Made by a program: the position numbers and the translations under genes
Shown: positions 4,114 to 62,178 of the stretch, piece after piece
Layout of the letters: the number at the start of each line of letters is the position of its first letter
Numbering within the stretch: position 1 is the stretch's first letter
Source: Candidatus Parepulonipiscium sp. PG-Nuni2H_MBin01
Lineage (GTDB): Bacteria > Bacillota > Clostridia > Lachnospirales > Cellulosilyticaceae
Assembly (NCBI GenBank): GCA_001994995.1
Contig: MDJM01000084.1
Span: forward strand, 171 to 64,170
DNA length: 64,000 bases
Reading direction: 5' to 3'
The notes under the pieces: model-generated
Told to the model about the DNA's origin: nothing
What the model saw: the letters and a program-made list of their open reading frames with translations, nothing else
The model's database searches: none

Positions 4114-5340
4114 TCACACTAAGTTCACTTGATGATAAACTTTTTTACCTTTCTGTATCATAAGCGCATTATCTTTAAATAAATCTTTAGTAATTTCAAA
4201 AGTAATATCTGAAACAACCTCTCCATCCACTTTAATACCTTTTTGAGTAATTAAGCGGCGTGCTTCACCCCTTGAAGGCGCAAGAGCAGTTTTATCCACT
4301 AATAAAGATATAATATCAATACCTAAAGCAATATCTTCAGCACAAATGTCAGTAGTAGGCAAAGAACCTTGTGCTCCAGCTCCAGAGAACGCTGCTTTAG
4401 CTGCCTCTTGAGCTTTTGTTGCTTCATCTTCCCCATGAACTATTTTAGTTACTTCAAATGCCAAAATTTCTTTTGCCTCATTTATTTTAGCGCCTTCTAA
4501 ATTAGATAGGCGATTAACCTCATCCATAGGAATAAACGTAAGAAGAGATAAACAAATTTTTACATCTGGGTCTGCAACGTTACGCCAGTATTGGTAAAAT
4601 TCATAAGGACTAGTCTTATCTGCATCTAACCAAACTGCACCATTAACAGTCTTACCCATTTTTTGACCCTCACTAGTTGTAAGTAAAGTAAAAGTCATAC
4701 CAAAAGCAGTGTCACCATGAAGCCTGCGTACAAGTTCAACGCCACCTAAAATATTAGACCATTGGTCATTACCGCCAAGTTGGAGCTTACAATTAAACAA
4801 CCTGTATAGTTCTAGGAAATCATACGACTGCATAATCATATAATTGAACTCTAAAAAGGATAGCCCGCGTTCAAGCCGTTGCTTGAAACATTCAAAAGAG
4901 AGCATACGATTAACAGAAAAATGAACGCCTACTTCTCTTAATAATTCCACATAATTAAGCTTAAGTAGCCAATCTGCATTATTAGCAATAATAGCTTTAT
5001 CATCATCAAAATCAATAAAACGCTTAAACTGCTCTTTAAAGCGACTAATGTTATGCTCAATAGTCTCAACTGTTAACATCTGACGCATATCAGTTTTACC
5101 GCTAGGGTCACCTACCATCCCAGTTCCCCCGCCCATAAGAGCGATGGGAATATGCCCTGCAAGCTGCATATGACGCATAGCCATAATAGTTACAAAGTGT
5201 CCAACATGTAAACTGTCAGCAGTTGGGTCAAAACCAATGTAGAAAGTAACTTTTTCCTTGCCTAAAAGTTCTTTTAACTCCTCTTCATGAGTTACTTGCT
5301 GAATGAAACCACGTTCCATTAGCGTATCAAATACATTCAT
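4114..5340 (-). CDS. tyrS: Tyrosine--tRNA ligase
   Basis: HVGH (HIGH) and KMGKT (KMSKS) motifs with an S4-like C-terminus. I moved the start to the ATG at 5340 ([12 protein letters not shown]) because GGGAGG lies 7 nt upstream. The listed ORF start at 5397 has no RBS. Confidence 0.93.
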
Positions 5341-5620: not shown

Positions 5621-7735
5621 ATGGAAATTATTAAACATGCTCAGCCCCTACTAGGAGGTACTTGTGACCAGGAAGGTGTTACATTTGGTATATACGCAAG
5701 TGAATTGCAAACTATCAAACTTGAAATTTATAATAACATAAATAGTGACCCAATTTTTACTTATACACTCCAACGTGAAGAAGATTCACAAGGCGATTTC
5801 TTCTATATAAAAGTAAGCGATATAACCGAAGGTGTATATTACACTTGGAGTGTCATTGTAGAAGGTAAGGAGCACTTTTTAATTGACCCCTATGCTTATG
5901 ACGTAGTAAAAGATGATAACGGGAAATTTTTTAATAAAGTAGTAAAACTCTCAAGTAATCCTACTAAAAGGGTACATATACCTTGGGAGGAAACTATAAT
6001 CTATGAAGTGCATGTTGGCCACTTTACTAATCATGAGACAGCGCAGGTAGAAGCTAGGGGAACTTTTGAAGGGATGATAGAAAAGCTTGATTATCTAAAA
6101 GACCTTGGTATTACTACTATTGAATTATTACCAATCTTTTTGTGGAATAGAAATACATTAATTAATCGTCATCCTAAAACTAATGAGCTATTAACTGATA
6201 TATGGGGGTATAACTCAATTAGTTTCTTTGCCCTAGACCCTGTATATATGACTAGTCAAGCAGATTTACGTGAAACGTTTAAGAAGTTTGTACGTGAAGT
6301 ACATGACCGTGGTATGGAAGTTGTACTTGATGTTGTTTATAACCATACTGGAGAAGGTGGAGATGGAGGTCCTATATTTAACTTTAAAGCTTTAAATAGG
6401 CATGGCTACTATCGCCACTACTATCAATACTATGCAAACTGCTCAGGTACAGGGAATACTCTTAATACTTCTCATTATTTAGTACAAGAGATGACGCTTA
6501 CAAGCCTTAGATATTGGGTTGTGGAAATGGGAGTAGACGGTTTTAGATTTGACCTAGCTTCAATTTTAGGACAAAATGAAGATGGCAACTGGAGTCATGA
6601 GTCTTTAATTAAAAAAATCACCGAAGACCCGATTTTATCTAAAGTTAAACTTATTAGTGAAAGTTGGGATGCAAAAGGTAGATATGATGTTGGTAAAATG
6701 CCTTATCCGTTCCATGAATGGAGCGATATATTTAGAGATTGTATTAGACCGTTTGTTAAAGGGGATAAAGGGCTAATAAACATGGTGGCAACGTGTATAG
6801 TGGGTAAAGAAATTTCAGCGCAAAATAACTATTCAACGTGTTTACCTGTTCACTACATTACAGCTCATGATGGATTTACGCTATGGGATTTAGTAAGCTA
6901 TAACGAAAAGCATAACTGGGATAATGGTGAGAAAAACCGTGATGGTTCTAATAATAACTATAGCTGGAATAGTGGATACGAAGGGGAAACTAATGACCCT
7001 TACATTTTTAACCTCAGAATTAGAAGGGTTAAGACGTTTTTAGGATTGCTATTTTTAAGTAAAGGTATACCAATGCTTGTTATGGGTGATGAGGGAGCAA
7101 GAACTCAAAATGGTAATAACAATGCCTTTTGTCAAGATAATGACTTAGTGTGGCTTAACTGGGATAGATTAGGTGAATTTGAAGATATTGCAGATTTTAT
7201 AAAAAAAGCAGTTGCACTTAGGAAAAGCGTTCATTGGTACCAAATTAAATCTGATGACAGCTTAAGCTGGCATGGAACTCGTATTAATGACCCTGACTGG
7301 AGTTATTTTTCTCGTAGTATAGCATGGTCAATTGACGAAGGGAATAGACAAATTTACTTTGTAGTTAACAACTATAGCCAGTCGCTTAGCTTTGATTTAC
7401 CAAATCCTAGACATGGATGGAGATTGTATCTGGATAGTGCTAGTAGAACCCATGATAAATCTATTCCTGTTCAAAATAATAAGTATTTAGTTGGAGAGTT
7501 TAGCTTCTGTGTATTAGTGGATGAAGAAGGAAATCAGATGGATAGATTACCTAAAGGTATCGACCCTACAGCGCTAGAAGCTGCTATCTCTAAAACCATT
7601 GAGACTATACCTTCAAAAGAGGAGTTTGAAAATACTTCGATAGGTACAGCAACTATTGAAGAACCTGCTCCTAATAATAATCTAGATATTAAGACTTTCA
7701 AATCACTGAATGAAAAAATTCTTAAAGATATTTAA
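5621..7735 (+). CDS. glgX: Glycogen debranching enzyme / isoamylase-type GH13 (GlgX-like) with an extra ~80 aa C-terminal tail
   Basis: GH13 conserved regions VVLDVVYNHT, GVDGFRFDLAS, SESWD and YITAHDGFTL, with an N-terminal CBM48-like beta domain. RBS AAAGGAG. Confidence 0.85.
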   Translation: MEIIKHAQPLLGGTCDQEGVTFGIYASELQTIKLEIYNNINSDPIFTYTLQREEDSQGDFFYIKVSDITEGVYYTWSVIVEGKEHFLIDPYAYDVVKDDNGKFFNKVVKLSSNPTKRVHIPWEETIIYEVHVGHFTNHETAQVEARGTFEGMIEKLDYLKDLGITTIELLPIFLWNRNTLINRHPKTNELLTDIWGYNSISFFALDPVYMTSQADLRETFKKFVREVHDRGMEVVLDVVYNHTGEGGDGGPIFNFKALNRHGYYRHYYQYYANCSGTGNTLNTSHYLVQEMTLTSLRYWVVEMGVDGFRFDLASILGQNEDGNWSHESLIKKITEDPILSKVKLISESWDAKGRYDVGKMPYPFHEWSDIFRDCIRPFVKGDKGLINMVATCIVGKEISAQNNYSTCLPVHYITAHDGFTLWDLVSYNEKHNWDNGEKNRDGSNNNYSWNSGYEGETNDPYIFNLRIRRVKTFLGLLFLSKGIPMLVMGDEGARTQNGNNNAFCQDNDLVWLNWDRLGEFEDIADFIKKAVALRKSVHWYQIKSDDSLSWHGTRINDPDWSYFSRSIAWSIDEGNRQIYFVVNNYSQSLSFDLPNPRHGWRLYLDSASRTHDKSIPVQNNKYLVGEFSFCVLVDEEGNQMDRLPKGIDPTALEAAISKTIETIPSKEEFENTSIGTATIEEPAPNNNLDIKTFKSLNEKILKDI

Positions 7736-7789: not shown

Positions 7790-8743
7790 TTAGTTGTAAT
7801 AAGCGCCAAACAATTCAGTATAAAATTGAGTATATGCATCTTCAATACTAATAATAACCTTATCTTCAGCAGGAACAAGCTCCTCTAGCTCTACATTTGT
7901 TTGATTTATATCTACACTAACATCTACCGATACCTCATCGCTTAACATGGTCAAGTAATATTGAGTTTCTAGAGTATCATCCACAAATGTAGAAATTTGA
8001 TTAAAATTAACCTCATTAAAGTCGTTAATAGTTTGTGCTAAGTCGTAAACCATAGCAGTTACTTCATCTACCTCACCTTGACTTAATGTTGAAGTATCAA
8101 AGAATAAACCAGATAAATCACCACTCATCATATCAGCCAAATCATTATACATATCTACAACTTCATCTTTACTTAAATCCATATAGTACGTTTGACCATT
8201 ATCATCAGTTAAAAACTCCATGCCTAATTGGTCCGCAATATCTTTCATTATAGAAGGGTCTGTTGCCGTAGACTCTATGTCCATGTTAAAGTCAATATAT
8301 TGACCAATATTTATATAATCAGCCGAAAAATCTAATGGTAACATAAGAGAGAAAGTATCTACGTCTACTAAAATACCTACGTCTGGTATACTATACATAG
8401 TAACATCAATCGTATCAGGCATCATACCAGCCGGTAATTCTAACACTTCCATAAGCTGTGTTAATGGGATATTCATTTCCATTTTACAAGTTGAAGAATC
8501 GGCATCAAATTGTATATCAAATCCAATTTCTAGAGGTAAATGCATATCCTCAGCTTCTATATCCATTTTAAACGTATACTGCATAGCTAAATCTTTTGAG
8601 TCAAATATCTCATCAAATTTTTCCCAATATGTAGGTGTAACTTCTACAATTTCTTCTGCTATTTCTGATGTAACAGGCGTATCATCACTACAACCCATTA
8701 ACATTAACCCTACGCATATAGGTAACAAATATAATTTTTTCAT
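7790..8743 (-). CDS. Acidic lipoprotein, function unknown
   Basis: Signal peptide with lipobox: MKKLYLLPICVGLMLMGC. The mature part is very D/E-rich. Confidence 0.65.
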   Translation of the reverse strand: MKKLYLLPICVGLMLMGCSDDTPVTSEIAEEIVEVTPTYWEKFDEIFDSKDLAMQYTFKMDIEAEDMHLPLEIGFDIQFDADSSTCKMEMNIPLTQLMEVLELPAGMMPDTIDVTMYSIPDVGILVDVDTFSLMLPLDFSADYINIGQYIDFNMDIESTATDPSIMKDIADQLGMEFLTDDNGQTYYMDLSKDEVVDMYNDLADMMSGDLSGLFFDTSTLSQGEVDEVTAMVYDLAQTINDFNEVNFNQISTFVDDTLETQYYLTMLSDEVSVDVSVDINQTNVELEELVPAEDKVIISIEDAYTQFYTELFGAYYN

Positions 8744-8835
8744 TTAAAAACTCCTTTAATTCGGTACTGTTAAGTTAACGTATAAAAACCTATTTGAAGC
8801 TTATTATAGAACAATCGGTACTTAAGTAGCCAAAA

Positions 8836-8866
8836 GGCTCCAGGGGCAAATTCCCTGGAACCTTCA
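8836..8866 (+). repeat. Partial copy (5' hairpin module only) of the intergenic repeat family
   Basis: CCAGGGGCAAATTCCCTGGAACCTTCAGA resembles CACAGGGGCAAATCCCCAAACCTCGGAGA at 45887-45915. On the minus strand it could also act as a terminator hairpin for the SLH gene. Confidence 0.3.
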
Positions 8867-8966
8867 GATTCATATCATGTTAACAGTTCCTTTATTTTGT
8901 GTAGTTAGTATAACTCCTAATATATATATAGTCAATATGTTGCTAAAAAAATTAACAATTATTTAA

Positions 8967-9929
8967 TTATTGTAAGTTAATAAAACGTGTCATAACTGCT
9001 GCCATCTCGGCTCTAGTTGCAGTACCTTTTGGATCTAAGTTATTTTGATCTTTTCCACCTAAAATGCCTGCTCCAATTGCCCATTCTACCGCTGGAGTAG
9101 CCCAAGAAGCAACCTTGTCCGAATCGCTAAAGTTACTTAAAGAACCTTTAATGCTAACATCTAACCCAGATTGAACAGAGTAATTATACATAATAGTAGC
9201 AAGCTGCTCACGAGTTACATCATCATTTGGACGGAAAGTTCCATCTTCAAATCCACCATAAATATCCGCTCCAACTGCCCAGTTAATAGAATTTGTATAC
9301 CAAACATTATCTACTACATCAGCAAATTTATTTGTAGCAGTAGCAATAGGTTCTCCATCTAAACGGTTTAAAATAGTTGCTAGTTGCGCTCTAGTAACAT
9401 TTTCATTTGGTGCCCAATTAGTTTCAGATACTCCAGTCATAAGTCCTAATTCACTTACGTTTACTACGTCCCAATAGTACCATGATGATTGCTTAATATC
9501 ATTAAAATTATCTGCTTTAAGAACTTTATTTTCCGCAGAATCTTGAGGAACAAGTTCTTCTACCTCTACAGTTTCTACTTTAGAGGTCTCAGTTTCTTGC
9601 GTTACTTCTTCTAAACTTTCTATATCTTCTATAGCTTCGGTATCTTCAATAGCGTTATTTTGGCTAGCTGTAGAGTTTGGACTAAATCCTTCAAAATACG
9701 CTGAATCCCATACATAAGACCCACCAGTAGTAGTTCCAGACGATGGTGTAGTAATTGAAGGTGGTGTTGTAATTGCTGCACCTGTAGTAGTTACTGCTGT
9801 TGATGCTATGTATTTTGTCTCGTTATATGTAGTGTTGTTCTCTGTCGCGCTTACAAAAGTTAATCCTGCAAACTGACTTCCTATCAATACGCCCGCCATA
9901 ACAAGGCTTGTTCTCTTTGAAATTTTCAT
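8967..9929 (-). CDS. SLH-domain cell-surface protein
   Basis: Three C-terminal SLH repeats (e.g. FNDIKQSSWYYWDVVNVSELGLMTG, VTRAQLATILNRL, VTREQLATIMYN). Signal peptide MKISKRTSLVMAGVLIGSQFAGLTFVSA. The start at 9929 follows AAAGGAGAC. Confidence 0.8.
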   Translation of the reverse strand: MKISKRTSLVMAGVLIGSQFAGLTFVSATENNTTYNETKYIASTAVTTTGAAITTPPSITTPSSGTTTGGSYVWDSAYFEGFSPNSTASQNNAIEDTEAIEDIESLEEVTQETETSKVETVEVEELVPQDSAENKVLKADNFNDIKQSSWYYWDVVNVSELGLMTGVSETNWAPNENVTRAQLATILNRLDGEPIATATNKFADVVDNVWYTNSINWAVGADIYGGFEDGTFRPNDDVTREQLATIMYNYSVQSGLDVSIKGSLSNFSDSDKVASWATPAVEWAIGAGILGGKDQNNLDPKGTATRAEMAAVMTRFINLQ

Positions 9930-15059: not shown

Positions 15060-17549
15060 ATGAATAGTGATATAAAATGTGCAAGCGGAACACAACCTTT
15101 TGACCAAACCTATAGTTTAGGATACCAAGTAAATCATGAAGATTGGTCACCATTTCCACGTGTAAACCGCCTTAGGCAAGCTTTTTTAGATAGGCCATAT
15201 GAAGTAGATGTAGAAAGATTAAGGTTAGTTACAAATTCATATAAGAAACACGAGGATTTACCTCGTAAGTTACAGTGTGCATATGCATTTGAAAATGTTT
15301 TATTAAATGCAACTTTATATATTTACGACGAAGATTTAATTTTAGGCGAAATTGCAGCGCCAGCTAAAGCATCACCTATATATCCTGAGTTTTCAGTAAA
15401 ATGGATTATAGATGAAATACTGCACCACCCATTTGAAGAGCGTGCAAACGACCAGTTCTATATTCGTAGTGATGAAGATAGAAAAGAAATCGTAGAGCTT
15501 TGTAGGTATTGGGAAGGAAAGACTGTTGATGACCTTATTAGCGCTAGGTTAGAAGAGTCGCAAACGGTTGGCTCTCAGGTTGGAGATAAAGTGTTCCAAA
15601 CTAACGTTTATCAATATGCAGGAGTAGGCCATCTCGCTATGGATTATTTTATGCTAATGGACATTGGTTTTGATGGTATGATTGATAAAGCAAAAGTGGC
15701 GCAAAGTAAGCTATCTAAAAAAGACCCAGAATATGCAGAAAAAAGAGATTTTTATAAAGCAATGCTTATTATGTTAGAAGCATCTAAAAAGTATATAGAA
15801 CGTTATGGCAAGCTAGCAGCTGATATGGCACAGACAGAGCTTGCGCCTAAAAGAAAAGAAGAGCTGTTAGCAATGTCAGCTAACTGTTATGAGATTGCAG
15901 GTCCAGCGCCTAAAACTTTTTGGCAAGGTATACAATTGTTTAACTTTGCAACTACACTTACCCAGATAGAAAGTAATGGTCACTCAATTTCCTATGGGCG
16001 TATGGACCAATGGCTATACAGTCTTTATGAAGCGGACATTAAACAAAATACTTTAACAAAGGAATTTGCTCTTGAACTTCTTGAGGTGCAGTTTGTTAAA
16101 ATGAATAACCCTACTAAATTAAAAGATAAAGGGACTGTACTAGTGCGCAATGGTAGAGGTTTTGGTGGCGAAAGTCTTACTATTGGTGGGGTGGATAGCG
16201 AAGGGAATGATGTTACTAACGATTTAACAATGCTAATCTTAGAAGGTTCTGCGCATACTCGTATGATGAACCCTTGGGTATGTGTTCGTATGCATGAGAA
16301 TACACCTTATGAGTTAAAAGTTAAAGCAGTTGAGTGTATTCGTGCTGGATATGGGCATCCAAAATTATTTAATGATGAACCAGCTATTAAAGCTATGATG
16401 AGAAAAGGAATGCCTATTTGTGAAGCTAGAGATTATATTGTAGTAGGCTGTGTAGAACCAAGTTTAGCGGGTAAAGAATTTGGTTGGCATGATGCGGCAT
16501 ATGTTAATACTGCAAAAATGTTAGAAATGGTAGTAAACGGCGGTATGTGTTTAGATGGTGGGGTGTTTGGTAAGCAAATAGGGCCTAATACTGGTACTTT
16601 AGAAACTTACAAAAGTTTTGATGAGGTATTAGAGAGTGTAGATAAACAGTTTGATTATTGGTGTGACCAAATGTGCAGTAGCTTAAATATAATTGAGGAT
16701 GCACATAAACTGCGTAAACCAACCCCATATGTATCAGCATTTTTTCCTCATTGTATTGAAACTGGTAAAGATTTATCCGAGGGCGGTGCTAAGTATAATG
16801 GAACGGGGCCACAAGCTAGTGGGATAGCTACATGTGCAGATAGTTTAGCGACTATTAAGCAATTAGTATTTGATGAGAAACGTTATACAGGTGCTCAACT
16901 GCTTCAAGCTATTAAAGATAACTGGGAAGGACATGAGAAATTATATGCTTTAGTAAATAGCTCAAAAATCCATCACTATGGAAACGATGATGATTATGCA
17001 GATGAATTATTTAAATTTATGTTTGAGTGTTATTGTAAAAACATAAATTATCGCAAAAATTTAAGAGGCGGTAACTTTAGCCCCGGTGTATATTCGGTTA
17101 ATGCTAATGTAGGAATGGGCTTATTTACTAATGCCTCTTTAGATGGGCGTTTTAAAGCTGAAGCTATTTCAGATAATATGGGACCTGTACATACTGATGG
17201 CGGTTCCCATGATATTTGTGGCCCTACAGCCTTAGCTAATTCAGTAAGTAAGGTTGACCACAGTTTAGCAACTAACGGAACCTTATTAAATATGAGATTT
17301 CCGCAAGAAGCAGTTGCTGGTACAGAAGGTAGAGATAACTTAATAAGTTTTATTGATGAATATATGTCAAAAGCACCTATGCACGTTCAGTTTAACATAA
17401 TGAACGTAGCTACTATGAAAGCGGCACAGAAAAATCCAGAAAATTATAAAGATATGTTGGTTAGAGTAGCTGGGTACAGCGCATACTTTGTGGAGCTTGG
17501 TAAGCCTTTACAAAAAGACCTAATACAACGTACAGAGCTTAATTTTTAA
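15060..17549 (+). CDS. Glycyl-radical enzyme, PFL2 / diol-dehydratase-like clade. The substrate is unresolved: DHPS or glycerol dehydratase are the candidates.
   Basis: 829 aa. C-terminal Gly-radical motif MLVRVAGYSAYF and Cys loop VVGCVEPS. GVGHLAMDY, NGHSISYGR and FGWHDAAY resemble my recollection of dehydratase-type GRE active-site motifs. Confidence 0.88.
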   Translation: MNSDIKCASGTQPFDQTYSLGYQVNHEDWSPFPRVNRLRQAFLDRPYEVDVERLRLVTNSYKKHEDLPRKLQCAYAFENVLLNATLYIYDEDLILGEIAAPAKASPIYPEFSVKWIIDEILHHPFEERANDQFYIRSDEDRKEIVELCRYWEGKTVDDLISARLEESQTVGSQVGDKVFQTNVYQYAGVGHLAMDYFMLMDIGFDGMIDKAKVAQSKLSKKDPEYAEKRDFYKAMLIMLEASKKYIERYGKLAADMAQTELAPKRKEELLAMSANCYEIAGPAPKTFWQGIQLFNFATTLTQIESNGHSISYGRMDQWLYSLYEADIKQNTLTKEFALELLEVQFVKMNNPTKLKDKGTVLVRNGRGFGGESLTIGGVDSEGNDVTNDLTMLILEGSAHTRMMNPWVCVRMHENTPYELKVKAVECIRAGYGHPKLFNDEPAIKAMMRKGMPICEARDYIVVGCVEPSLAGKEFGWHDAAYVNTAKMLEMVVNGGMCLDGGVFGKQIGPNTGTLETYKSFDEVLESVDKQFDYWCDQMCSSLNIIEDAHKLRKPTPYVSAFFPHCIETGKDLSEGGAKYNGTGPQASGIATCADSLATIKQLVFDEKRYTGAQLLQAIKDNWEGHEKLYALVNSSKIHHYGNDDDYADELFKFMFECYCKNINYRKNLRGGNFSPGVYSVNANVGMGLFTNASLDGRFKAEAISDNMGPVHTDGGSHDICGPTALANSVSKVDHSLATNGTLLNMRFPQEAVAGTEGRDNLISFIDEYMSKAPMHVQFNIMNVATMKAAQKNPENYKDMLVRVAGYSAYFVELGKPLQKDLIQRTELNF

Positions 17550-17559
17550 TAACTTTTAC

Positions 17560-17720
17560 TCTCCTCATAAGCGGTTATGCCTAAGAGGGGAGCCTTAGAT
17601 TTATATGGGGTACAGGGGCAATGCCCCTGACTGTGTCCCTTCAAAAACATCGGCCGCCTTAGTATTTATTGCTATAAAAGGTTGATTGAAAAGTTTTCAT
17701 TTGTTAAGTTAACAAGACCA
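17560..17720 (+). repeat. Intergenic repeat family, copy A (full length)
   Basis: Hairpin CAGGGGCAATGCCCCTG (17613-17629). The core CTTAGTATTTAT...AAAAGGTTGATTGAAAAGTTTTCATTTGTTAAGTTAACAAGACC ends about 25 nt before the RBS of the Fe-ADH gene. It is near-identical to the cores at 45928-45987 and 62124-62178. Confidence 0.75.
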
Positions 17721-17745
17721 GACTTTATTATAGGAGGAATATATA

Positions 17746-18888
17746 ATGAAAGATTTTAGATTTAAAATACCACAAAATATTGAATTTGGCTTAGGAAGTT
17801 TAAATAAACTACCACAATTATTAGAACAAAATAATTCACAACATGTACTGCTTATATCGGATAAAGGGTTAGAAAGTATTGGGATAGTTAAAAAAGTACA
17901 AGATATAATAAGCGCTAGTAATATTCAATGCACCACATTTTTGGACATAGACCCAAATCCAACTATTGAAATGGTCGACGCGGCAGCAAGTTTATATAAA
18001 GAATGCGGTGCTACAAGTATAGTTGCTCTTGGAGGCGGAAGCCCTATCGACGTTGCAAAAGCAGTGGGAGTACTTGTTGTTTATGGAGGTAAAATTACAG
18101 ATTATGAGGGTATGCACAAAGTGCCTGGACCAATTGTACCTATGATAGTAATTCCAACTACAGCTGGGACAGGTAGTGAAGCTACAGCTTCAGCAGTAAT
18201 AACAGATGTAACAAGAAATTATAAGATGACTGTATTTACTTATGAAATTTTACCTAAATACGCAATACTAGACCCAGAGCTTATTATGACTGCACCAGCA
18301 TCAATTGCGGCGGCGTGTGGTGTAGATGCATTTATTCATGCGATGGAAGCTTATTTATCTCGAAATGCATCCCCATTTTCAGATGCTATGGCTGAAAAAG
18401 GGATGGAATTAATCGGCAAAAGTTTAAGGCAGTTTGTGGCTGATAGAACAAACGTTGAAGCGGCGTGTAATATGATGGCAGGTTCTAATTTTGCCGGAAT
18501 TTCATTTGCTTGGGCAAGGCTTGGAAATATACATGCTATGAGTCATCCTGTAAGCGCTTATTTCCATGTGCCACATGGTATTGCTAATGCTATACTTATG
18601 CCTACAATAGTTGAGTACAACGCACTGGCTGATGATGGTAGATATGAGAAAATTTATAACTATATAAGTAAAGAGTCTGTTAGCAATTTTAAACCACAAA
18701 TGCTAGTAGAGGCGTTAAGACAGCTAAATGAAGAACTTGGTATTCCTAATTCATTATCAGCAGTAGGCGTAACCGAGGATTTAATCGAAACAATGGCCAA
18801 TGATGCTATGGCTAGCGGAAATATCCTTGCTAATCCAAGACAGGGTAATGTTAAAAATCTTATAGAGCTTTACAAAAAAGCCTTATAA
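17746..18888 (+). CDS. Iron-containing (group III) alcohol dehydrogenase, DhaT/FucO-like aldehyde reductase
   Basis: GGGSPIDVAKA and the His-rich metal site HAMSHPVSAYFHVPHG. 380 aa. RBS AGGAGG. Confidence 0.9.
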   Translation: MKDFRFKIPQNIEFGLGSLNKLPQLLEQNNSQHVLLISDKGLESIGIVKKVQDIISASNIQCTTFLDIDPNPTIEMVDAAASLYKECGATSIVALGGGSPIDVAKAVGVLVVYGGKITDYEGMHKVPGPIVPMIVIPTTAGTGSEATASAVITDVTRNYKMTVFTYEILPKYAILDPELIMTAPASIAAACGVDAFIHAMEAYLSRNASPFSDAMAEKGMELIGKSLRQFVADRTNVEAACNMMAGSNFAGISFAWARLGNIHAMSHPVSAYFHVPHGIANAILMPTIVEYNALADDGRYEKIYNYISKESVSNFKPQMLVEALRQLNEELGIPNSLSAVGVTEDLIETMANDAMASGNILANPRQGNVKNLIELYKKAL

Positions 18889-45731: not shown

Positions 45732-45834
45732 AGACTATCTTCCTTAATTTTGACGTGCTAAAAAAACTTTCTTTACTATTTTTGTTTTAGCTGAGTTTCT
45801 TCATTAAATTGTTGGAGATGCTAACTTAATATGA

Positions 45835-45987
45835 AAACCCTCTTGTCAGATTTGCTGATATCCCCATAAAGGGGACACTTTTGGCACAGGGGCAAATCCC
45901 CAAACCTCGGAGAGGCTCGACCAGCTTAGTATTTATTACAACAAAAGGTTGGTCGAAAAGTTTTCATTTGTTAAGTTAACAAAACCT
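45835..45987 (+). repeat. Intergenic repeat family, copy B (full length; not followed by a gene)
   Basis: Hairpins TCCCCATAAAGGGGA and GGGGCAAATCCCC. The core GCTTAGTATTTAT...AAAAGGTTGGTCGAAAAGTTTTCATTTGTTAAGTTAACAAAACC is followed by GGAGAAACTTATGTAG (RBS + ATG + stop). Confidence 0.75.
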
Positions 45988-46046
45988 AATATATTTAGTG
46001 GAGAAACTTATGTAGCTTAAAAAATTTTTGTATACTGCAAAACAGT

Positions 46047-61903: not shown

Positions 61904-62077
61904 AAAAATATCTCCTCTTCTTAAAATTTTATTACCCTTTAAGTATACTCCAATTTAAAAAATAATCAAGACTCAGCGCTTAATTCTATTTATTTACAAT
62001 TGCAGGTTTTAAATTGCTATGTTACAATATTGTTACAGAATTCTTATATGTAATTAAATACATATGAATTCTATAGA

Positions 62078-62178
62078 CAATGCCCCTAACTGTTTCCCCA
62101 CACACTGAAAAAAATCGCCTGCCTCAGTATTTATAAAAGGTTGAGCGATAAGTTTTCATTTGTTAAGTTAACAAAACC
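62078..62178 (+). repeat. Intergenic repeat family, copy C (5'-truncated)
   Basis: It begins inside the hairpin (CAATGCCCCTAACTGT). The core CTCAGTATTTATAAAAGGTTGAGCGATAAGTTTTCATTTGTTAAGTTAACAAAACC ends about 20 nt before the RBS and the ATG at 62198. Confidence 0.75.

Follow-up and report, generated by a model that had tools for sequence, protein, structure and literature searches.

Repeat copies and their neighbouring genes

We examined a window of 64,000 nucleotides (the whole stretch of DNA analysed here, contig C84) from a 2.7-Mb assembly of 88 contigs, with 34.5% G+C and a completeness of 95.6%. Three plus-strand copies of an intergenic repeat, here referred to as copies A, B and C, were identified at the places given by a first-pass annotation of the same DNA. 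Copy A lies, as had been said, between a glycyl-radical enzyme gene and an Fe-dependent alcohol dehydrogenase (Fe-ADH) gene, and the surroundings of the other copies are listed in Table 1. While the three loci stood, the limits of the copies had to be redrawn. Likewise, the conserved core had been placed 15–25 nt before the ribosome-binding site, whereas its tip (..ACC) actually lies 8–13 nt before GGAG and 19–26 nt before ATG.

Table 1 Features of the repeat family and of its neighbours. Positions refer to the window unless a contig is named; MITE, putative miniature transposon; TIR, terminal inverted repeat; PWM, weight matrix of the ends
Feature	Position	Strand	Remarks
Related 128-nt MITE, complete	8763..8890	-	both ends by PWM, 25.1 + 14.5 bits; flanks match 6/8
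Glycyl-radical enzyme gene (PFL-like + Gly_radical), upstream of copy A	15060..17549	+	
Copy A (MITE), 131 nt	17589..17719	+	nhmmer E=2.7e-27; proximal tip 27.9 bits on end PWM
Distal (IRR-type) TIR of copy A, decayed	17589..17607	+	several mismatches to GGAGCTGTTAAyTTAATATG
GC-rich hairpin CAGGGGCAATGCCCCTG in the variable 5′ half of copy A	17613..17629	+	
Conserved internal core of copy A, AAAAAcATCGnnnGCCTTAGTATTTATTrCTATAAAAGGTTGAnnGAAAAG	17645..17693	+	
Candidate outward promoter of copy A	17682..17710	+	TTGATT 17682-17687, 17-nt spacer, TG-n-TAAGTT, -10 at 17705-17710
Proximal (IRL-type) TIR TTTTCATTTGTTAAGTTAACAAGACC of copy A	17694..17719	+	palindrome of the first-pass annotation at 17701-17715
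Shine-Dalgarno GGAGG and ATG of the Fe-ADH gene	17733..17748	+	GGAGG 17733-17737 (+14 from copy A tip); ATG 17746
Fe-dependent alcohol dehydrogenase gene, downstream of copy A	17746..18888	+	Pfam Fe-ADH 1e-50, ADH_Fe_C 1.7e-54
Copy B (MITE), 173 nt, full length, between convergent genes	45814..45986	+	nhmmer 2e-29
GGAG at +14 from copy B tip, then ATG TAG	46000..46015	+	ribosome-binding site look-alike without a gene
Copy C (MITE), 5′-truncated	~62078..62178	+	upstream of secreted beta-lactamase-family gene, ATG 62198
Further strong copies	contigs C50, C88, C64, C78, C47, C28		
Weaker or partial copies	contigs C66, C5, C10, C80		

The GC-rich hairpin CAGGGGCAATGCCCCTG reported for copy A was confirmed, and similar GC hairpins are present in other elements of the host genome that are bounded by terminal inverted repeats (TIRs). 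The distal end of copy A, GGAGCCTTAGATTTATATG, is degenerate and its flanks no longer match as a target duplication; with the distal arm decayed there is no closing hairpin (fold z = -1.4). Copy B forms one long hairpin closed by its TIRs (fold z = -4.2), which align as TGCTAACTTA--ATATGAAAAC / TGTTAACTTAACAAATGAAAAC, and the ATG TAG beside it is followed directly by the convergent gene. In copy C, GGAG is found at +9 from the tip, not at +14; a separate inverted repeat, GAATTCTTATATGTAATTAAATACATATGAATTC, occupies window positions 62037-62075 directly upstream of its truncated 5′ end. A fourth, partial copy had been listed at 8836-8866, but this is really a hairpin inside the complete, oppositely oriented 128-nt relative of Table 1, in which the proximal tip and the ATG of a minus-strand gene (7790-8743) are 19 nt apart, with GGAG at +9.

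In the relative G012 (chromosome, ~2.520 Mb), the orthologous glycyl-radical enzyme gene is followed by 4 nt, AGGAG and the ADH gene with no element, and the gap is only ~18 nt, against 196 nt including copy A in the host genome, where window positions 17547-17746 were compared. Since the two orthologues nearly abut there, copy A is an insertion into a gene pair that is tight elsewhere. It splits the ADH gene from the glycyl-radical enzyme gene, the coupling of which may have changed. In G006, with an ADH 86% identical, the upstream gene encodes a transporter, not a glycyl-radical enzyme. An exact-protein look-up of the ADH downstream of copy A returned no record from other assemblies.

Copies were sought across the assembly by pattern search, BLAST and an nhmmer profile. 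The profile detected 9 strong and 2–4 weaker copies over the 2.7 Mb, and an extra copy just past the end of contig C30 was visible in a metagenome contig of the sister strain. The family is thus genome-wide, with at least 12 copies of the subfamily and ~35 TIR-bounded relatives in this genome. The copies are 75–88% identical to each other, and in their alignments the 5′ half has diverged far more than the gene-proximal core. The 3′ core described earlier, ...AAAAGGTTGnnnGAwAAGTTTTCATTTGTTAAGTTAACAArACC, is indeed common to A, B and C, with the terminal 25/25 bases identical, and the core reached a mean column identity of 79% in a 10-copy alignment.

On the other hand, BLAST of copy A against 40 relatives and a search for the exact core pattern in GTDB representatives gave chance single matches only, and the pattern TGTTAAnTTAACAnnnCC was rare outside the host genome. 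Self-BLAST of the genome for long repeats or insertion sequences (IS) returned paralogous genes only. The host assembly is probably metagenome-derived and a sister strain exists: contigs MDSP01000162/202/850 are 99.4% and MDSQ01000045 is 100% identical to the host genome. The metagenome scan retrieved the same species only, with the same copies in place and no empty site or polymorphic insertion. In the hairpin of copy A, the sister strain carries a C-to-T change (GCCCCTG to GTCCCTG) at which a G-U pair is kept.

Among the explanations offered at first was a cis-acting structured RNA (a riboswitch-like leader or an sRNA) with a stem flanking the AGTATTTAT loop. The copies are situated in 5′ leaders, the arms of copy B do pair, giving up to an 11-bp stem, and one position (pair 11-44) is A-T, C-G or G-T (A-U, C-G or G-U as RNA), as had been observed. 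However, in the 10-copy alignment 72.0% of cells were paired in the proposed stem, where column shuffles gave 70.4%, the covariation was 0.164 against 0.158, with 118–168 of 500 shuffles doing as well (168 for the covariation score), the two middle pairs were unpaired in 6–8 of the ten copies, and RNAalifold returned zero consensus pairs for the core. The fold of copy A (z = -1.4) and the functionally unrelated downstream genes also speak against this reading. An Rfam scan of the whole window matched no family at gathering thresholds, and the only match of copies A and B at E≤1 was to a chance fragment of RNAIII. With pairing at the level of shuffled columns, a structured leader or sRNA is hardly credible.

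Inverted repeats, target duplications and the parent element

The TIRs are ~25 nt long, with the distal tip GGAGCTGTTAAyTTAATATGAAA and the gene-proximal tip TTTCATttgTTAAGTTAACAAGACC. The 5′ ends of full-length copies (GGnnnTGTTAAyTTAATATGAAA) are the reverse complement of the 3′ end TTTCATttgTTAAGTTAACAAGnCC; the consensus at both ends is GGnnnTGTTAAnTTAAyAtgaaa, and per-copy TIR alignments were obtained for copies B, F, H and J. Thus, the palindrome TTGTTAAGTTAACAA, followed by (r)ACC, is part of the gene-proximal TIR, i.e. of the putative transposase-binding end. A weight matrix of the ends detected 57 sites at ≥16 bits, against 5 in a reversed-sequence control, and paired ends bound elements of 23–193 nt without an open reading frame for a transposase.

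The 8-bp flanks were identical at 7/8 or more positions in 7 of 23 elements, compared with 0.6% of non-cognate pairings (p ~6e-11), and the C50 copy has TATAAATT on both sides. Judged from these flanks, the elements were moved by a transposase supplied in trans, with 8-bp target duplications. The flanks of A, B and C match at only 3/8, 4/8 and 2/8 positions; since these are unmatched, the distal TIR of A is decayed and C is truncated, the assignment of these three copies rests on the family and not on each copy itself.

We also identified a likely parent. Other genera of the same family share the distal tip sequence, and in G053 it closes a 1.26-kb repeat present in two copies, 99.4% identical, with GGTCTTGTTAAGTTAA as IRL and GGAGCTGTTAAGTTAAAATGAAAA as IRR. 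The proximal end of copy A recurs as TTAACTTAACAAGACC, the IRL of this IS6-type element. Its 340-aa protein matched PF13610 DDE_Tnp_IS240 (4.5e-24) and Zn_ribbon_InsA (1.7e-6), the zinc-ribbon motifs being N-terminal, and showed 47–53% identity to plasmid-borne proteins annotated as ISCpe7-family; in tblastn against plasmids, Clostridium botulinum and C. perfringens plasmids were matched as well, but the Cetobacterium record was the one analysed. Clade VII of Harmer & Hall 2019 (PMC6807381), which is clade h of Varani et al. 2021 (PMC7986276), includes ISCpe7, ISCbo1, ISClte3, ISTps1 and ISNth1. Its elements are 1226–1349 bp long, with transposases of 340–353 aa that carry a zinc finger, and make 8-bp target site duplications (TSDs), and the clade is described without experimental data (PMC6807381).

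Taken together, the repeats are most likely non-autonomous miniature transposons (MITEs) of the long, zinc-finger IS6 clade VII/h, ISCpe7/ISCbo1-like, with polar insertion by GGAG; we put the probability of this reading at about 0.85. The MITE-like element named among the early candidates was therefore right in kind: both TIRs and target duplications, which had been given as the marks of an ordinary MITE, were found, plus a parent IS6-type element with the same ends.

An autonomous relative was detected in a different phylum, as three copies of a 1271-bp IS in Cetobacterium somerae. One of these copies has a perfect 8-bp TSD, TTAATTTA, on both sides, then 5 nt and GGGGGAG. On C. somerae p1 (NZ_CP143320, ~19 kb and ~579 kb), two inverted copies of the IS have swapped 8-bp flanks, AAGGAAAT and TATGTAAT, which hints at an inversion by recombination between copies or at intramolecular replicative transposition, either of which is expected to leave such flanks. 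In the G053 IS (C59 L074, 2143-3401), an inner end-like sequence, GGCTGTTAATCTAAT, opens the last ~150 nt, past the transposase stop, in which two TTGACA motifs also occur; perhaps this IS carries a MITE-like unit fused to its right end.

No IS6 transposase was found in the host assembly by protein search or with PF13610. Since the assembly reaches a completeness of 95.6% and may lack some repeats, the transposase is to be called not found rather than absent, and for want of it mobility in this genome is described as historical. The host-genome copies, old by their 75–88% likeness and with the cognate transposase not assembled, are probably fossils.

These ends bear on a further early suggestion, in which the palindrome was an operator bound by a dimeric regulator and the copies would define a regulon. 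The clostridial Rex box consists of the half-sites TTGTTAA and TTAACAA, 4 nt apart. TTGTTAA-G-TTAACAA is a perfect 7-1-7 inverted repeat with these same half-sites, it overlaps the candidate -10, and one downstream target is an alcohol dehydrogenase. However, the half-sites here are 1 nt apart instead of 4, an IS and MITEs with target duplications end in the same sequence, most members of the family have just TTAAnTTAACA and not the full palindrome, and the motif was not found upstream of orthologues in 40 relatives. The downstream genes have no common function: they encode Fe-ADH, a beta-lactamase-family protein, a solute-binding protein, CinA, PrpF, a DEAD-box helicase, an ABC ATPase and a PfkB kinase and, in the wider family as read from motifs, ribosomal protein S14, Hsp33, a response regulator and GGDEF/EAL proteins. 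They are too unrelated to form a regulon, and an operator cassette is very improbable. Since the motif at a fixed distance is a transposon end, co-regulation of these genes should not be inferred from it. The Rex box was rejected for its spacing, CodY, Spo0A and LexA boxes and the 7-1-7 boxes of the Fur family were rejected by eye, and integron attC sites were rejected because the genes are scattered and chromosomal.

Insertion beside ribosome-binding sites

Twenty-five of the 78 non-coding ends in the host genome face a Shine-Dalgarno sequence and a start codon. All 25 tips are 18–27 nt from the start codon, and none is at 0–17 or 28–60 nt. Most of the remaining ends are the opposite tips of these same elements, which means that a gene start adjoins one tip of nearly every element. 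The arrangement is polar, as the gene-proximal tips are of the AAGACC/AAAACC/AGGGCC type, which corresponds to the IRL of the parent, and the distal tips of the GCTCC type, which corresponds to the IRR.

GGAG starts exactly at +14 from the tip in 15/23 flanks of the host genome and in 17/22 flanks of four relatives (G017, G053, G054 and G004), while from a random position the first GGAG falls at +11 to +15 in 1.2% of cases. Autonomous IS follow the +14 rule in 6/6 IRL flanks (G053 and G023), and those of Cetobacterium somerae in 3/3, one at +15. Among other insertions in 9 genomes of the class, 11 of 12 obey, including all five near-identical copies of G228 (5/5), the exception being one at +20 in G423. 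The tip sequences vary between lineages; the distance from tip to GGAG does not. At three insertions, GGAG is present with no gene behind it (copy B, G053 L108 and G209 L141), and the G053 one sits inside a sulfatase remnant. As far as the sites of insertion tell, insertion is polar and position-specific, with the IRL-type tip 13 bp upstream of GGAG and ~24 nt from the start codon, and the gene reading away from the element. Pairing of the tip with the anti-Shine-Dalgarno was considered and rejected, as AAGACC does not pair with GGAGG.

Such a pattern could also be produced by selection, if elements were inserted anywhere and only copies with a promoter-bearing end just upstream of a ribosome-binding site were retained. 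The MITE copies of the host genome, at 75–88% identity, are old enough for selection to have acted, conservation is much higher in their gene-proximal core than in the 5′ half, and ends of the IS6 family are known to drive neighbouring genes (PMC7986276). However, selection for expression would not fix a distance to one base, and GGAG is at +14 in 32/45 flanks. The rule is also obeyed by near-identical, hence recent, autonomous copies (6/6 in G053, 5/5 in G228), three insertions adjoin GGAG without a gene behind it, and there are almost no copies at other kinds of site. We thus consider selection unlikely. On the strength of the base-exact spacing, the recent copies and the gene-less cases, it is fairly probable that these positions were chosen by the transposase and did not arise through later selection.

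The transposase would then read the GGAG motif in DNA and cut at a fixed distance from it, with the extra zinc-finger domain as the probable reader; we infer this targeting of GGAG from the places of the insertions. Each copy would push the upstream DNA 130–170 nt away from the gene, which for copy A means the glycyl-radical enzyme gene. In its broadest form, which we are somewhat inclined to accept, zinc-finger IS6 transposases and their MITEs would home to ribosome-binding sites by recognising GGAG in double-stranded DNA, and would insert 13 bp upstream of it, always in the same orientation; they would thus spread without breaking genes, split operons and install portable leader or promoter modules across Clostridia and Fusobacteria.

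Because it always lands between a gene and its promoter, such an element would need an outward promoter. The pattern TTGAnn-17-TAAGTT, proposed earlier as a promoter, is present in the sequence, with TTGnnC and TAAGTT retained in 8–9 of 10 copies and an AT-rich stretch upstream of TTGAnC-17-TG-n-TAAGTT. The match to consensus is weak (TTGAnC 3–5/6; TAAGTT 3/6, with an upstream TG), a promoter scan of copies A, B and C did not call the candidate, and a -35 at this spacing is not retained by the equivalent ends in G017 and in the G053 IS. With the predicted start at the tip, the leader would be ~27 nt long, and a terminator scan of the three copies predicted no intrinsic terminator. The odds of an outward promoter in the 3′ core of this subfamily are, on these patterns, roughly even; it would keep the gene expressed, like the ends of IS257 and IS26. 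Promoters of alternative or sporulation sigma factors (sigE/F/G/H/K, TcdR-type) were rejected by eye. An IS26-style hybrid promoter with TTAACA as the -35 was also rejected, as the Shine-Dalgarno occupies the place of the -10 and the transcript would lack it.

Comparison with known elements and further remnants

The window elements resemble ISCpe7/ISCbo1 of clade VII/h in their 8-bp TSDs and, via the G053 IS, in their ends. They differ from members of this clade in having no transposase, a length of 23–193 nt and unrelated GC-hairpin modules. ISfinder lists just two MITEs for the whole IS6 family, MITEBth2 and MITEHarch3, which likewise consist of both IS ends with no ORF between; by their descriptions, with which alone we compared them, they are 227 and 336 bp long and belong to other clades and hosts, and their position relative to genes is not mentioned in the two reviews (PMC6807381; PMC7986276). 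The IS6-family ends of IS257/IS431 and IS26 also adjoin genes and supply a -35 or a full outward or hybrid promoter, at an arbitrary distance from the gene and often with the -10 in the flank (PMC7986276). In the window repeats, unlike IS257 and IS26, the candidate -10 is internal to the repeat, and the place of a flank -10 is taken by the Shine-Dalgarno.

The rule of an IRL tip, 13 bp and GGAG is not stated for clade VII/h in the reviews of the IS6 family, which hold no experiments on this clade and no target rule (PMC6807381; PMC7986276). ISCbo1 has been described as "in most cases located directly upstream a gene", with 8–9-bp direct repeats (Skarin et al., PMC3098183). Apart from this hint, our literature search found no paper stating the rule with its single orientation. 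The MITE subfamily is new within a known IS family, and the clade-wide, oriented and base-precise association with ribosome-binding sites is only hinted at in the literature.

Small TIR-bounded intergenic repeats that fold into hairpins and are often co-transcribed with, or drive, a neighbouring gene also include the Correia elements of Neisseria and the ERIC, RUP and BOX MITEs. Their parent transposases are different or unknown, and the duplication is TA for Correia and RUP; to our knowledge neither their orientation nor their distance from the ribosome-binding site is fixed. As far as we know, DDE transposases rarely target a generic gene-expression signal to the exact base and in one orientation. 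If the rule is intrinsic, it would explain a high copy number without gene disruption and would offer a natural tool for oriented insertion just upstream of a ribosome-binding site. When genomes are annotated, a motif conserved at one set distance from many start codons can be mistaken for the operator of a regulon or for a leader RNA.

Other sequences with similar ends were observed in the host genome. Contig C41 has solo palindromes of 23–28 nt (4781-4803, 7135-7157 and 9608-9635; e.g. GGAGCCGTTAAGTTAACAGCTCC), one before each of three tandem paralogous genes of ~770 aa, read from motifs as GGDEF/EAL-type, at 20–25 nt from the ATG. The 8-bp flanks of two of them match at 7/8 and 6/8, and the palindromes resemble what would be left of the same element if it were reduced, tip to tip, to a minimum. 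Tandem GC-rich double hairpins, GGGGCCGGAGGCCCC...CAGGGGCGAAGCCCCTG, with a period of ~90–116 nt, were detected in contigs C2 (2584-2776) and C33 (~6070-6220). The C2 hairpins have the same TTAAnTTAACA ends on either side; these modules appear to be a separate REP-like module nested in the MITEs. Perhaps even a ribosomal-protein gene carries such a remnant, as in contig C62 (~19220) an end-like motif, TTAACTTAACAAAGTC, precedes by 25 nt a gene of 61 aa that was read as ribosomal protein S14 (zinc-ribbon type).
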